Source: Dickeya solani IPO 2222 (lineage in GTDB: Bacteria > Pseudomonadota > Gammaproteobacteria > Enterobacterales > Enterobacteriaceae). Taken from it: DNA of 32,000 nt. Position numbers and translations under genes: made by a program. The stretch is from contig NZ_CP015137.1 in the NCBI RefSeq assembly GCF_001644705.1, positions 3,840,001 to 3,872,000 on the forward strand, in the 5' to 3' direction. This document shows, piece after piece, positions 3,419 to 6,221 of this stretch; the first letter of the stretch is position 1, and every line of letters starts with the position of its first letter. The notes under the pieces are model-generated. The model was not told where the DNA came from. It did not search any database and saw nothing but the letters and a program-made list of their open reading frames with translations.

Positions 3419-3961
3419 TCAGAATTTCATTTCCGCGGCTTCATCGAGTGCTGCGCGCCGCTGTTTACGTTGGATCATTTCCTGAATGTCCTCCCGGCTG
3501 ATCAGGCGCAGGGCGTTGGTCGGGCAGACCTCAACGCAGGCCGGACCGTTGGCGCGTCCTTCGCACAGGTCGCACTTGTGCGCTTCCGCCTTGATGCAGT
3601 TACCCAGCGTTTGATAATGGCTGATACGCGCCACCGGTTTACTGATCACCGTCATGGCGCCGTACGGGCAGGCCACCACGCAGGTTTTGCAACCAATGCA
3701 TTTTTCCTGCTGCACCCGGATATGATCGCCGGCATGTACGATCGCCCCGTTAGGGCAAACATTGGCGCAGGGCGCATCTTCACAGTGGCGACATTGGATC
3801 GTGGTGCTGACATTCAGCCCCTTCACCACTTTCAGGCGCGGTGTGAAATGTTCTGGCGACAGCGACGACGGGTTGCCGTCGCTGTGCGCCAGCACGCAGG
3901 CGACTTCGCAGGTACGGCAGCCAATACATTTCCTGGGGTCTGCTAAAACGAACCGGTTCAT
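3419..3961 (-). CDS. hydN: HydN-type 4Fe-4S ferredoxin (electron transfer partner of FDH-H)
   Basis: 180 aa starting MNRFVLADPRKCIGCRTCEVAC. Four Cys-cluster motifs are present: CIGCRTCEVAC, CRHCEDAPCANVCP, CIGCKTCVVACP, CDLCEGRANGPACVEVCP. It is colinear with E. coli HydN as recalled. AAGGAG lies 8 nt upstream of ATG 3961, and there are 34 nt to the fdhF start. Confidence 0.9.
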   Translation of the reverse strand: MNRFVLADPRKCIGCRTCEVACVLAHSDGNPSSLSPEHFTPRLKVVKGLNVSTTIQCRHCEDAPCANVCPNGAIVHAGDHIRVQQEKCIGCKTCVVACPYGAMTVISKPVARISHYQTLGNCIKAEAHKCDLCEGRANGPACVEVCPTNALRLISREDIQEMIQRKQRRAALDEAAEMKF

Positions 3962-3996
3962 GACAGGGTCTCCTTCCGCGGCTCTGATGGACTAAG

Positions 3997-4031
3997 GGTG
4001 ATGTCGACGGCTCGGCCGCCGACACATCACC
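3997..4031 (-). promoter_or_regulatory. GC-rich inverted repeat in the predicted 5' leader of hydN-fdhF (RNA hairpin or protein-binding dyad)
   Basis: GGTGATGT (3997-4004) and ACATCACC (4024-4031) are perfect 8-bp complements. Pairing is extended inward by CGACGGC / GCCGCCGAC with a 2-nt bulge and one mismatch. The element lies between the predicted -12 element (4041-4042) and the hydN ATG (3961). Confidence 0.4.
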
Positions 4032-4038
4032 ACATATA

Positions 4039-4055
4039 AAGCAGGGTTTATGCCA
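4039..4055 (-). promoter_or_regulatory. Sigma54 (-24/-12) promoter for hydN-fdhF
   Basis: The minus strand reads TGGCATaaaccCTGCTT. GG and GC are 12 nt apart, as in the consensus TGGCAC-N5-TTGCW. It lies 78 nt upstream of the hydN ATG. The same TGGCAT...TGCTT form occurs at the hyfA and hypC promoters. Confidence 0.6.
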
Positions 4056-4125
4056 GAATGAACGCTTATGGTTTAGTAATTTGATTTATAAGAAATTTAA
4101 AGTGATTTCTTTGGAGAAAGACCGC

Positions 4126-4183
4126 CAGTGACCGGCCGGTGACGAGTGTCAGTCGACGAGGTTCGGCAGATTTGACGACGTGT
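4126..4183. promoter_or_regulatory. Candidate upstream activator (FhlA/HyfR) binding region for the hydN-fdhF promoter
   Basis: Hexamers TGACGA (4140-4145, 4173-4178) and GTCGAC (4152-4157) lie 70-130 bp upstream of the sigma54 promoter. The same hexamers are clustered in the hyfA-hypC intergenic region. An AT-rich tract with a 12/13 IHF-like match (minus strand AATCAAATTACTA, 4074-4086) lies between this region and the promoter. Confidence 0.35.
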
Positions 4184-4424
4184 GCCCGGCGCGGTGTAGG
4201 CCACGGCGACAGACAGATAAAAACCGATCTGTTGCGAAGCGCGTTCCATCTCTGAAAACAGCCTATCGAGGTTAGAAAGCCTGGCCTTTATTGTGGCTTC
4301 AGGATTGTGGTTTCAGGGCCAGGGCGCTTTACCTGCATACTTCAGCGGCGCGCAATGGCTGTTTATTGTTCAGTGAAATCAACATGAAGCCTTTTACCGG
4401 CGATAAGACTGAAAATAGGATGAT

Positions 4425-4442
4425 TGTATCCTTTGGGATACA
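4425..4442. promoter_or_regulatory. Perfect 7-4-7 palindrome, candidate operator of the DUF4160/DUF2442-HTH cassette
   Basis: TGTATCC (4425-4431), tttg, GGATACA (4436-4442). It overlaps a plausible sigma70 promoter: TTGTAT 4424-4429, 17-nt spacer, TACTCT 4447-4452 preceded by TGT. It lies 32 nt upstream of ATG 4474. Confidence 0.4.
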
Positions 4443-4473
4443 GTGTTACTCTGCTCATTGACAAGGAGTGCCA

Positions 4474-4731
4474 ATGCCTGAGGTTGATAGACTGGCAGGG
4501 CTAATTTTCCATTTGTACTTTTATGATGATGAGCGGCACTACTTGCCGCATGTACATGTCTGCTACGGCAACCATGAGCTGATCATCAGTATTCGTACTG
4601 GAACCGAGATCGAAGGATATCTGCCGAATAACAAGCGCAAGATGGCGCTTGCGCATATCAGGGCCCATCGGGAACAACTGCTGAGTATGTGGGAACGGGC
4701 GGTAGTGGGGAGAAATCCAGGAAAATTGTGA
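4474..4731 (+). CDS. DUF4160-family small protein (85 aa), function unknown
   Basis: The ORF track starts at GTG 4468, but AAGGAG (4463-4468) fits ATG 4474 with a 5-nt spacing. The product is MPEVDRLAGLIFHLYFYDDERHYLPHVHVCYGNHELIISI...QLLSMWE. This shows the typical DUF4160 pattern (MP...G..F.FY...H.PPH.H. .YG..E..I.I; C-terminal ...L...W). It is AT-richer than its neighbours. Confidence 0.8.
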   Translation: MPEVDRLAGLIFHLYFYDDERHYLPHVHVCYGNHELIISIRTGTEIEGYLPNNKRKMALAHIRAHREQLLSMWERAVVGRNPGKL

Positions 4732-4738
4732 GGCATTT

Positions 4739-5254
4739 ATGCATAAAATCGTGGAAGTTGACGTTATTGGTGATTTTTCGTTGCGCCTGACCTATGACGA
4801 TGGTCTGGTTTGCGACATTAATCTTTATCAATATGCGTCCAGCCCAGTATTTTCGGACGTCAGCCTATTTATCAAGTTTGGGTTGTTGCCGGATGGCGCG
4901 TTGGAATGGCTGCCGGATATTAAGATTTCCGCGTCAGAATTGCGGAAAAAAGGGGAGTATGTCAGCCACACGCTGGCGGTGCGAGAAAGGCACTTCGCCG
5001 ATGTCATCTCGCGCGCCTTCTATGATGCCGTGATTGAAAACCGGCCGGAAATTCTGCAAGCAGCGTTGAAAATCGCGGTGGAAAAACATGGCAACAGCAC
5101 CGTAGCCAAAGAGGCGGGGGCGAAAAGTCGCACCAGCTTGTATAAGTCGCTGAATAAAAATACCCATGTCAGCCTGGCGACGGTGGTCAGCCTGGCGCAT
5201 ACCGTGCTGCAGTTGGAAGAGTTGCAATTGGAAGATCTGCAATTGGAAGAATAA
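4739..5254 (+). CDS. DUF2442 domain fused to a HigA/TIGR02684-like 'addiction module antidote' HTH domain, with a C-terminal (LQLEE)x3 tail
   Basis: 171 aa. GAGG lies 5 nt upstream of the ATG, and the gene starts 8 nt after the DUF4160 stop. The N-terminus (KIVEVDVIGDFSLRLTYDDGLVCDINL...GALEWLPDIKISASEL) matches the DUF2442 pattern. Residues ~95-160 (ENRPEILQAALKIAVEKHGNSTVAKEAGAKSRTSLYKSLNKNTHVSLATVVSLAHTV) resemble the antidote-type HTH (...IAKDTGLSRESLYKALS..GNP.F.TVLKVL.ALG). Confidence 0.75.
   Translation: MHKIVEVDVIGDFSLRLTYDDGLVCDINLYQYASSPVFSDVSLFIKFGLLPDGALEWLPDIKISASELRKKGEYVSHTLAVRERHFADVISRAFYDAVIENRPEILQAALKIAVEKHGNSTVAKEAGAKSRTSLYKSLNKNTHVSLATVVSLAHTVLQLEELQLEDLQLEE
5207..5251 (+). 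repeat. 3 x 15-bp tandem repeat encoding LQLEE-LQLED-LQLEE at the C-terminus of the DUF2442-HTH protein
   Basis: ctgcagttggaagag / ttgcaattggaagat / ctgcaattggaagaa, immediately followed by TAA 5252-5254. Confidence 0.95.
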
Positions 5255-5332
5255 ATAGGCTGCGGGATTGCGGTCAGGGGCGGCTGGCGTCTGCTCCGCC
5301 CGCCGCCATATCAGGTCAATTGCGCGAGCGCT

Positions 5333-5830
5333 TCACCTCAGCACGTCAAAGCCGCCATTTGCCTCCCAGCCGGATAATCGCTGGTACAGAGTGTCCACCG
5401 CCCGGGTGACTTCCGGGCTGATGGGAAAATAGAACGCCACCAGCGCCGGCTGAATGCCGACGAAAATCACCTCGGGAATGTCCTCCTTCAGGCTGTCGAT
5501 CAGGTAGTTCAGCGGCAGGCTGTGGGTATTCATCAGCATGTCTTCGGCGATACGGTCCGGATCGACGATGCGAATGTCGCCCGGCGTCAGCCCCATGTCG
5601 GTGGCGTCTACCACCAGCAGGCGCCGAGGCTTCAGTTCCCGCAGCGTGTGAGCGGCATTTTCCGGAATAGCGCCGCCGTCAATCACCGACCAGCCCGCCA
5701 CCGGCTGTTGGCTCATGCGTTCCGCCAGCAGCGGGCCGGCGCCGTCGTCCCCCATCAGGGTGTTGCCGACGGTCAGCACGATATTTTCGATGTATAAAGG
5801 GGCGTCGGTGTGTAAAGGATGTTCAATCAT
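5333..5830 (-). CDS. hycI: Hydrogenase large-subunit C-terminal maturation endopeptidase HycI
   Basis: 165 aa containing GNTLMGDDGAGPLLAERM, VVDATDMGLTPGDIRIVDPD and HSLPLNYLIDSLKEDIPEVIFVGIQP, colinear with E. coli HycI as recalled. I use ATG 5830; the ORF track begins one codon earlier at TTG 5833. The start overlaps the hyfJ stop by 8 nt. Confidence 0.9.
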   Translation of the reverse strand: MIEHPLHTDAPLYIENIVLTVGNTLMGDDGAGPLLAERMSQQPVAGWSVIDGGAIPENAAHTLRELKPRRLLVVDATDMGLTPGDIRIVDPDRIAEDMLMNTHSLPLNYLIDSLKEDIPEVIFVGIQPALVAFYFPISPEVTRAVDTLYQRLSGWEANGGFDVLR

Positions 5831-6221
5831 CAAGGCGCTTCACCATCAGATAAATAGCCGGTTCCCGTTGCATCGCGGCCAGATAGTCCACCAGCGTAGC
5901 AGTCCATTCCGGGTAGCGATCCGCCGCTGCCAGTGCGGTGAACGCACTGCCCAGCAGCACGGTGTGGGTGTGGTCGATGGTGATTTCGCCAAAGCGCAGC
6001 AAACCCAGCATCTTGCGGCGGGCCTCCTCATCACTCAACTGGCCGACCCAGCCTTCGTACTCCGCCAGCGGGCAATGCAACACCTGTTTCAGGCAGTCGA
6101 TGACGCCGACATGATGACCGATAGCCAGCGAGTAATACATCACCTGCTGTGCCTGCTCCGGTATCTTGTCGCGGCTGTCGAGAAACTTGCGGTTCAGGGC
6201 ATAAAAACGCACGCTGCTCAT
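5823..6221 (-). CDS. hyfJ: HycH/HyfJ formate hydrogenlyase maturation protein
   Basis: 132 aa containing [21 protein letters not shown] and AIYLMVKRL near the C-terminus, as in HycH/HyfJ. ATG 6221 overlaps the hyfI stop (ATGA). Confidence 0.85.

Follow-up and report, generated by a model that had tools for sequence, protein, structure and literature searches.

Identity and setting of the dhiTA operon

Two tightly spaced genes in the window (the whole 32-kb stretch of Dickeya solani IPO 2222 DNA that was analyzed) very probably represent, as read here from sequence, the orthologue of dhiTA, a known chromosomal type II toxin-antitoxin operon. The module is real, yet it is already known, the family having been named, tested and provided with annotation models. 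The toxin matched the toxin_DhiT equivalog model NF048015 over its full length with 133.9 bits (E = 2.3e-39), against an NCBIfam equivalog cut-off of 100 bits, while the antitoxin matched NF048016 (antoxin_DhiA equivalog) over residues 1-159 with 208.2 bits (E = 9.2e-62), a narrow margin over the cut-off of 200 bits. Both proteins are identical to D. solani proteins, and the same sequences were present on 48 contigs. Compared with the D. dadantii 3937-type pair, identity was 75% for DhiT and 89% for DhiA, and the 3937-type DhiA (WP_033111743.1) likewise lies between hydN and hycI. With DDA3937_RS07415/RS07420 as the reference loci, both orthology and synteny were found, the setting fdhF-hydN / dhiT dhiA / hycI-hycH being common to D. 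solani and the 3937-type locus.

The D. dadantii 3937 operon was named and tested in 2021 (Boss et al. 2021, Int J Mol Sci 22:5932; PMC8198452). In that work dhiT and dhiA were co-transcribed, DhiT was toxic in both Dickeya and E. coli and was neutralized by DhiA, and a 100-bp upstream fragment had promoter activity that was repressed by DhiA and more strongly by the DhiT-DhiA complex, while the cassette did not improve plasmid maintenance (PMC8198452, Figure 8 legend). The sequence-only reading had described the D. solani cassette as having no described function and had held that DUF4160/DUF2442 genes have no experimentally established role. This was wrong, given the 3937 experiments and the two NCBIfam models, and it is also contradicted by the validated DUF4160/DUF2442 pairs of the Bacteroides prophage Wilby 1 (bioRxiv 10.64898/2026.06.25.734096) and of a Thermus thermophilus plasmid (PMC12724237), across which toxicity with rescue, or addiction behavior, has been demonstrated. 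The same reading had also proposed an autoregulated, toxin-first type II module, which probably holds for D. solani given the equivalog matches and the experiments on the 3937 orthologue. As a discovery the locus carries little weight, since the family had been described before the present scan. The source records consulted label the D. solani proteins only 'DUF4160 domain-containing', 'DUF2442 domain-containing' or 'DNA-binding protein', and these entries could be relabelled DhiT and DhiA.

The genes dhiT (4474-4731) and dhiA (4739-5254) are both on the plus strand, separated by a 7-nt gap, and the pair lies between hydN and hycI. All of the neighbors are minus-strand formate hydrogenlyase (FHL) genes, encoding an FdhF-type formate dehydrogenase, a HydN-like protein, HycI and the hydrogenase-4 subunits B, D and F, so the earlier description of two coupled plus-strand genes inside a minus-strand FHL locus was accurate, as was the remark that the cassette differs from its neighbors in composition. 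GC content is 0.49 for dhiT (GC3 0.55) and 0.50 for dhiA (GC3 0.60), compared to 0.58-0.61 (GC3 0.70-0.80) for the neighboring genes. The layout is bicistronic with the toxin gene first, a GAGG ahead of dhiA overlaps the dhiT stop codon, and in relatives the two genes are either 7-9 nt apart or overlap by 7 nt. A GC-rich hairpin that forms on both strands (5277-5301) lies in the gap where dhiA and hycI converge and is a weak candidate for a two-way terminator, with a stability not above that of shuffled sequence (z = -0.7 and -1.4) and without a T-run. RNA folding of 4185-4423 and of 5255-5332 was likewise not better than for shuffled sequence.

The DhiT toxin

The 85-aa toxin gave a clear match to DUF4160 (PF13711), scoring 64.7 bits where the gathering score is 23, which bears out the domain first assigned to it by eye. 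Two starts are available, a GTG at 4468 and an ATG at 4474, and the ATG is the likely one because a Shine-Dalgarno AGGAG (4464-4468, plus strand), invariant in four Dickeya species, stands 5 nt upstream of it and because the alignment to the DhiT model begins at residue 3 of the GTG form. The gene is conserved at the protein level (dN/dS 0.06-0.16), and in a comparison of dhiTA loci from seven genera, residues H22, H26, H28, D18 and E35 did not vary. An AF2 model of DhiT (pLDDT 84.6) has five strands followed by two helices and found no solved or viral structural relative among the structures compared, RelE and ParE included; a sequence search of PDB chains returned a single chance-level match (E = 0.85). 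The expectation that a RelE/ParE-type killer is absent from the locus was therefore borne out, the toxin being a DUF4160 protein with a model unlike the solved RelE/ParE structures.

Our best guess for the activity of DhiT, a speculative one that falls somewhat short of an even chance, is RNA cleavage or binding. Since no solved or viral structure resembles the DhiT model, the guess is made by association only. In Menshen NsnC, DUF4160 takes the position of the C-terminal effector, and the other domains that can stand there are mostly RNases (PMC12065111); in addition, Grad-seq in Synechocystis placed a DUF4160 protein on a shortlist of RNA-associated proteins (PMC8136920). With a toxicity validated in its orthologue, a confident model and no structural relative, DhiT is a reasonable candidate in which to find a new toxic activity.

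The DhiA antitoxin

The 171-aa DhiA consists of a putative N-terminal DUF2442 domain (aa 4-71, nt 4748-4951), a linker, and a putative C-terminal HI1420-type helix-turn-helix (HTH; aa 95-155, nt 5021-5203). The sequence-only reading had proposed a DUF2442 domain joined to a HigA/TIGR02684-like HTH. In the single protein these assignments fall below threshold, with DUF2442 at 21.0 versus 23.9 bits, PF21716 (HI1420-type antidote HTH) at 23.2 versus 27 and TIGR02684 at 29.4 versus 53.7, but they hold across aligned relatives, where DUF2442 was detected in 11 of 13 (best E = 6.5e-10) and the HI1420-type HTH in 12 of 13 (best E = 3.1e-10). Selection differs between the two halves, dN/dS being 0.025 for the HTH half, which is nearly invariant within Dickeya, and 0.147 for the N-terminal half; dhiT and dhiA together are under purifying selection (dN/dS 0.04-0.16). 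At the 3' end of dhiA, three tandem 15-nt units (5207-5250) encode LQLEE-LQLED-LQLEE and account for the length of 171 aa, versus 161-163 aa in the other Dickeya compared. A sequence search of PDB chains with DhiA gave no match, and its AF2 model (pLDDT 47) was set aside as unusable.

A conserved layout of probable operator and putative promoter

A putative dhiTA promoter was recognized by eye at 4424-4452, with a -35 box TTGTAT (4424-4429), a 17-nt spacer and an extended -10 element TGt-TACTCT (4444-4452). Both hexamers keep 3 of 6 consensus positions, and a consensus scan missed it; in distant dhiTA relatives the -10 boxes are better (TATAGT, TATACT). The -35 box and some of the spacer are covered by a perfect 7-4-7 palindrome, TGTATCC-tttg-GGATACA (4425-4442), which has no second match in the window even when 2 mismatches are tolerated (0.05 expected). 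The earlier claim of a perfect palindrome over a plausible promoter is thereby upheld. In D. undicola, D. oryzae and D. dadantii the arms are kept, in contrast to a variable 4-nt spacer and variable flanks, and the 100-bp reporter fragment of 3937 is 97% identical in D. solani, palindrome included. More widely, seven genera have a TGTMTCY-N4-RGAKACN pattern at -49 to -57 relative to the dhiT start codon, with paired A>C / T>G changes in the two arms in Edwardsiella, Marinomonas and Oceanospirillum. The layout, with the -35 box within the left arm, was found at all 11 dhiTA loci examined, which come from seven gammaproteobacterial genera (Dickeya, Edwardsiella, Vreelandella, Vibrio, Rheinheimera, Pseudoalteromonas and Marinomonas) and of which three were added once the pattern was already set. 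We infer that the palindrome is probably the DhiA operator. To what was known, the present analysis adds the Dickeya specificity of the cassette at this site, the confident DhiT model and the conserved palindrome/promoter layout across the dhiTA family, which offers a concrete, testable DNA target for DhiA family-wide.

In the proposed working of the module, the weak sigma70 promoter would give a bicistronic mRNA with the toxin gene first, and dhiT and dhiA would be translationally coupled. Free DhiT would inhibit growth and would be neutralized by the N-terminal DUF2442 domain of DhiA, while the C-terminal HTH, as a dimer, would bind the palindrome overlapping the -35 box, with DhiT as co-repressor. 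The assignment of toxin binding to the DUF2442 domain draws on the Thermus plasmid antitoxin, a single-domain DUF2442 protein of 92 aa (PMC12724237), which shows that this domain can neutralize by itself.

Distribution and insertion site

The DhiA subfamily is small: it numbers 18 representatives in a set of 1.84 billion proteins, and 117 clusters at 90% identity. Its members with a source name are almost all from Gammaproteobacteria. A DUF4160 gene directly precedes dhiA in every distant locus that retains a toxin. Searches of phage and plasmid record sets returned no DhiA-type protein by tblastn and, for DhiT, only DUF4160 genes of 30-38% identity, on 28 plasmids and in 3 phages. Between D. 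solani and D. dadantii, dhiT and dhiA exceed the flanking genes 3- to 10-fold in synonymous divergence, with a dS of 1.07 for dhiT versus 0.10-0.20 in the flanks.

The cassette is absent from the hycI-hydN spacer in Brenneria and other Pectobacteriaceae and at this site is specific to Dickeya, where it occupies the same position in all five species examined. The suggestion of an insertion therefore stands as regards the foreign composition and the absence of the cassette from this spacer in relatives, but the cassette is not a recent or strain-specific arrival, being shared by the five species, and the acquisition of dhiTA is, on these sequences, old. An imperfect 17-nt direct repeat (4295-4311/5258-5274) was considered as an insertion scar and rejected, as it is not kept in D. 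undicola.

Upstream of the cassette, similarity to other Pectobacteriaceae ends at about 4190, and the sequence from 4191 to 4423 is a Dickeya-specific non-coding spacer in which indels disrupt reading frames between Dickeya species. The stretch of some 230 bp (4190-4420) previously flagged as unexplained is thus real and specific to Dickeya; the searches gave no explanation for it, with no Rfam match over 3800-5500 at a permissive threshold, no unusual folding (z = -0.4 and -0.6) and no relic of the chemotaxis-receptor gene that occupies the hycI-hydN spacer in relatives. The left boundary of the cassette is set by the hydN control region (3962-4190, minus strand), which lies outside it and contains two conserved blocks: a sigma54-type promoter TGGCAT-N5-CTGCT (4040-4055), recognized by pattern match and conservation, and an upstream block TTCGGCAGATTTGACGA (4162-4178) that is a putative FhlA binding site. 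Both are kept in Dickeya, Brenneria, Pectobacterium, Symbiopectobacterium and Serratia, with and without dhiTA. Sigma54 patterns are in no excess in the window (23 found versus 21 expected), so that the evidence for the hydN promoter is its conservation and position.

Comparison with known systems and alternative explanations

The D. solani operon resembles that of D. dadantii 3937 in gene order, sizes, domains, position between hydN and hycI and the 100-bp promoter fragment. It differs in a 9-residue C-terminal extension of DhiA, which derives from the 15-nt triplication, and in a markedly diverged toxin allele, in which 25% of residues differ and which is known here from sequence. The generic pairs of Thermus and Bacteroides share the order of a DUF4160 toxin followed by a DUF2442-containing antitoxin, but the Thermus antitoxin has no HTH, whereas the DhiA subfamily adds one of the HI1420 type. 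HI1419/HI1420 (TIGR02683/TIGR02684) and HigBA are also toxin-first and have an HTH homologous to the C-terminal half of DhiA, and this homology is what would favor reading dhiTA as such a module after the replacement or loss of a RelE/ParE-type toxin. That origin is highly improbable. DhiA is paired with a DUF4160 protein whose predicted strand-then-helix fold matched no RelE or ParE structure, it carries N-terminal to its HTH the DUF2442 domain proposed to neutralize, which HigA does not have, and its whole-protein scores fall below the TIGR02684 and PF21716 cut-offs. Scarcely more probable is that DhiA was recruited as a regulator of the surrounding FHL genes (hydN-fdhF or hyf-hycI), for which position alone speaks, the cassette having the hydN control region on one side and the end of the hyf-hycI operon on the other. 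Against it, the window contains a single operator motif even at 2 mismatches, taxa without dhiTA also keep the hydN control blocks, and relatives of the cassette lie in unrelated settings, namely in a prophage, beside metabolic genes and, in Vibrio, within a run of small unrelated genes. It is also very unlikely that the pair is a non-functional, decaying leftover from an old insertion. Loss of the toxin is indeed common, dhiT being absent or shortened in Edwardsiella-type prophages and in Oceanospirillum, with DhiT entries of only 62 and 75 aa in some Dickeya strains and a call of only 42 aa in one D. solani-type assembly. Against decay, both genes are intact here, the same on 48 contigs and under the purifying selection described above, the promoter, operator and ribosome-binding site are all conserved, and the 3937 orthologue is transcribed and active (PMC8198452).

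The biological role of the module may be stabilization of the region, phage defense or selfish persistence. A phage-defense role deserves more weight than the alternatives above, although we consider it rather unlikely as the main role of dhiTA. Infection would free DhiT and the cell would stop, an abortive infection that is compatible with a toxin-antitoxin mechanism. DUF4160 is one effector domain of the Menshen anti-phage system, where it forms the C-terminus of NsnC, fused to an inactive PIN domain and working with NsnA and NsnB (PMC12065111). DhiT belongs to the same toxic domain family, but is a stand-alone single domain with a dedicated antitoxin; neither NsnA (ParB-DUF262) nor the NsnB ATPase adjoins it, the neighbors being hydN and hycI. 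With PADLOC 2.0, neither DhiT nor DhiA matched any family at E up to 1, and published reports describe no phage phenotype. Relatives of dhiTA do occur in Edwardsiella prophages and in a Bacteroides prophage, but the Bacteroides copies have been read as prophage-maintenance genes (bioRxiv 10.64898/2026.06.25.734096). In favor of defense, the raised dS of dhiT and dhiA is what allele exchange would give, and in D. undicola a 2-kb island of GC 0.34 adjoins dhiA and encodes a match to the PADLOC candidate PDC-M48B (E = 9.5e-31). The island and the synonymous divergence also fit a bolder and still less likely reading, in which DhiT would have a fold without solved relative and a new activity, and dhiTA would be a phage-defense module under diversifying allele exchange. 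If so, the hycI-hydN spacer would be a small defense spot in Dickeya.

Identity of the DUF4160/DUF2442 pair

The first gene of the cassette, dhiT, matched Pfam DUF4160 at 64.7 bits (gathering score 23), a clear result for the domain that the sequence-only reading had assigned, and also passed the NCBIfam equivalog "type II toxin-antitoxin system toxin DhiT" (133.9 bits, cut-off 100). The second gene, dhiA, narrowly passed the equivalog "antitoxin DhiA" (208.2 bits, cut-off 200), and with both models passed, the earlier interpretation as a toxin-antitoxin module is correct. The proposed fusion of DUF2442 (residues 4-71) to an HI1420-type antidote HTH (residues 102-155) was sub-threshold against Pfam in this protein alone but was recovered across relatives, with DUF2442 matched by 11 and PF21716 by 12 of the 13 that were aligned (best E-values near 1e-10); at the family level, the predicted two-domain architecture holds. 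Only 18 members of the DhiA subfamily emerged at E <= 0.001 when 1.84 billion representatives were searched exhaustively, and a profile search of a larger collection returned 117 clusters, many already labelled DhiA and, where a source name was carried, almost all from Gammaproteobacteria. The DhiT and DhiA of the window are identical to the D. solani proteins, each of which was present on 48 contigs, and this identifies the window as D. solani DNA. The D. solani entries seen in NCBI and UniRef are named only "DUF4160 domain-containing", "DUF2442 domain-containing" or "DNA-binding protein", despite passing the equivalog cut-offs.

The dhiTA pair was named in D. dadantii 3937 (DDA3937_RS07415/RS07420, domains DUF4160/DUF2442), where the genes are co-transcribed as judged by RT-PCR, DhiT inhibits growth in D. 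dadantii as well as in E. coli, and DhiA co-expression rescues it (Boss et al. 2021, PMC8198452). In the same study, toxin overexpression in D. dadantii did not cause filament formation and the cassette did not improve plasmid maintenance (PMC8198452). For a DhiTA pair from a Bacteroides prophage, toxicity and its neutralisation were later observed in E. coli (bioRxiv 10.64898/2026.06.25.734096), and a Thermus plasmid DUF4160/DUF2442 pair improved plasmid persistence, with no transformants of T. thermophilus obtained when the plasmid lacked its DUF2442 antitoxin gene (PMC12724237). Because dhiTA and related pairs have been tested in these studies, the statement that such genes have no experimentally established role was wrong; the system, its genus and its position were all known already, and the claim of novelty fails. 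The locus of the 3937-type pair (DhiA WP_033111743.1) has the same arrangement as the window, fdhF-hydN / dhiT dhiA / hycI-hycH, and the D. solani proteins are 89% (DhiA) and 75% (DhiT) identical to it.

Gene organization and composition

The dhiT (4474-4731) and dhiA (4739-5254) reading frames lie on the plus strand between hydN (3419-3961) and hycI (5333-5833), both on the minus strand, as are the other formate hydrogenlyase neighbours, which include an FdhF-type formate dehydrogenase, the HydN-like protein, HycI and hydrogenase-4 subunits B/D/F. The start of dhiT is most likely the ATG at 4474 (85 aa) rather than the alternative GTG at 4468, given the plus-strand Shine-Dalgarno AGGAG at 4464-4468, 5 nt before the ATG, and family models that align from that residue. 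The genes are separated by 7 nt with a GAGG across the dhiT stop codon, and translational coupling is therefore plausible; reading frames and neighbours agree with the description of two coupled genes against the direction of the locus. The AT-richer composition was also borne out, with GC of 0.49 for dhiT (GC3 0.55) and 0.50 for dhiA (GC3 0.60) compared to 0.58-0.61 (GC3 0.70-0.80) in the neighbour genes. Towards its 3' end, dhiA carries a tandem array of three 15-nt units (5207-5250), adding a 9-residue LQLEE-type extension to D. solani DhiA, which is 171 aa long compared to 161-163 aa in the DhiA proteins compared from other Dickeya species.

Insertion site and boundaries

The pair occupies the same hycI-hydN spacer in D. 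solani, D. dadantii, D. undicola and D. oryzae, and proteins of the same names occur in D. chrysanthemi, D. dianthicola, D. fangzhongdai, D. zeae and D. poaceiphila. The spacer is only ~260-420 bp in two Brenneria genomes and is filled by a ~560-aa ORF in other Brenneria, Pectobacterium, Symbiopectobacterium and Serratia, the Pectobacterium copy, the only one scanned, being a methyl-accepting chemotaxis protein. In Atlantibacter it holds two ORFs of ~670 and ~290 aa. The proposal of an insertion stands in that these other genera lack dhiTA at this site, with the qualification that acquisition is old and the site shared by four Dickeya species; sequence comparison indicates purifying selection (dN/dS 0.04-0.16).

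Only two blocks of the window spacer, 4021-4058 and 4159-4190, are shared with Brenneria, Pectobacterium, Symbiopectobacterium and Serratia, and therefore the hydN control region ends near 4190, and 4191 to ~5332 is Dickeya-specific. The first block contains a conserved minus-strand sigma54-type promoter, TGGCAT-N5-CTGCT (TGGCATAAACCCTGCT, 4040-4055), and the second, also read on the minus strand, holds TTCGGCAGATTTGACGA, probably an FhlA site by prediction. On its hydN side, the promoter is flanked by an imperfect inverted repeat, GATGTCGAC...GACACATC (4001-4028, minus strand). Pectobacteriaceae retain all three elements whether or not they carry dhiTA. The ~230 bp upstream of the cassette (4190-4420), first described as unexplained, is non-coding on sequence grounds, its reading frames being interrupted by indels from one Dickeya species to another; it gave no Rfam match, no unusual RNA folding and no relic of the spacer-filling gene of relatives. 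A second sigma54-like match within it (TGGAACGCGCTTCGCA, 4233-4248, minus strand), kept in D. undicola and with its GC element lost in D. oryzae, is probably due to chance.

Candidate operator and promoter

The perfect 7-4-7 palindrome TGTATCC-tttg-GGATACA noted at 4425-4442 is present and is the sole match in the window (0.05 expected). Within Dickeya, the arms of this candidate operator are kept and the 4-nt spacer and flanks vary. Loci were gathered from Edwardsiella, Vreelandella, Vibrio, Rheinheimera, Pseudoalteromonas and Marinomonas, and in all 11 loci with both genes an inverted repeat, TGTMTCY-N4-RGAKACN, lies 49-57 nt upstream of the dhiT ATG, with a TTGTMT in the left arm usable as a -35, a 17-nt spacer and a TAnnnT -10. 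The pattern had already been fixed when three of these loci were retrieved, and each of the three fitted it; by our own arithmetic, using the same degeneracy and a 110-nt stretch, the pattern has a chance of ~3.5e-4 per locus. Symmetric A>C / T>G arm changes in Edwardsiella, Marinomonas and an orphan Oceanospirillum dhiA would be the behaviour expected of a dimeric HTH site.

In D. dadantii, promoter activity resides in the 100 bp upstream of dhiT, DhiA represses this promoter by ~50% and the DhiT-DhiA complex represses it more (PMC8198452). The region upstream of dhiT, including that reporter fragment, is 97% identical between D. solani and D. dadantii and holds the palindrome, the ribosome-binding site and a putative -10 box. 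In Dickeya both hexamers are weak (3/6 each, with an upstream TG) and were not called by a consensus promoter scan; the promoter is therefore assigned from conservation and the published reporter data.

Toxin and antitoxin mechanism

The AF2 model of DhiT was confident (pLDDT 84.6, pTM 0.74), with five strands followed by two helices, and Foldseek found no relative among PDB or viral models at E <= 0.001. The Menshen study describes DUF4160 as an effector domain without a confident structural homologue, and cites dhiTA (PMC12065111). Residues invariant across dhiTA loci of seven genera include D18, H22, P25, H26, H28, E35 and E47. The H-x-x-P-H-x-H cluster, the Menshen slot of DUF4160, mostly held by RNases (PMC12065111), and a cyanobacterial DUF4160 protein whose sedimentation was RNA-associated (PMC8136920) are weak pointers to RNA, and action of DhiT on RNA is a guess. 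Since a single-domain DUF2442 protein neutralises its toxin in Thermus (PMC12724237), the N-terminal domain is likely the neutralising part of DhiA, with the HTH an added DNA-binding part.

Allele divergence, toxin loss and other loci

Between D. solani (4474-5254) and the D. dadantii locus (L051, 2235-2989), dS was 1.07 for dhiT and 0.63 for dhiA, compared to 0.10 for hydN and 0.20 for hycH, and D. solani DhiT is nearer to that of D. undicola (95%) than of D. dadantii (75%). High dS beside a promoter that is 98% identical suggests either allele exchange or an old polymorphism, affecting the coding part only. In D. undicola, a 2-kb island of GC 0.34 with two ORFs lies between hycI and dhiA (L001, 4490-6458); its 286-aa ORF matched the PADLOC candidate defence protein PDC-M48B (E 9.5e-31) and its 236-aa partner had no match. 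The hycI-hydN spacer may be a small defence-gene hotspot.

Several dhiA loci carry the antitoxin without an intact toxin. In Oceanospirillum, dhiA has its own operator-like palindrome, lacks dhiT and adjoins a yefM-yoeB pair; in Edwardsiella-type prophage contigs (L040-L046), dhiT is absent or reduced to its 3' end; and in the D. solani-type assembly GCA_013339845.1, dhiT was called at just 42 aa. Other Dickeya strains also have DhiT entries shortened to 62 and 75 aa. The V. cholerae pair lies amid a run of small unrelated genes, and GCCCCTTAGGCGGGCGTTA upstream of it resembles a V. cholerae integron repeat; this likeness would suggest an integron cassette. In E. tarda, dhiTA lies among the prophage-type genes AntA, YbcO, DUF1367 and DnaB.
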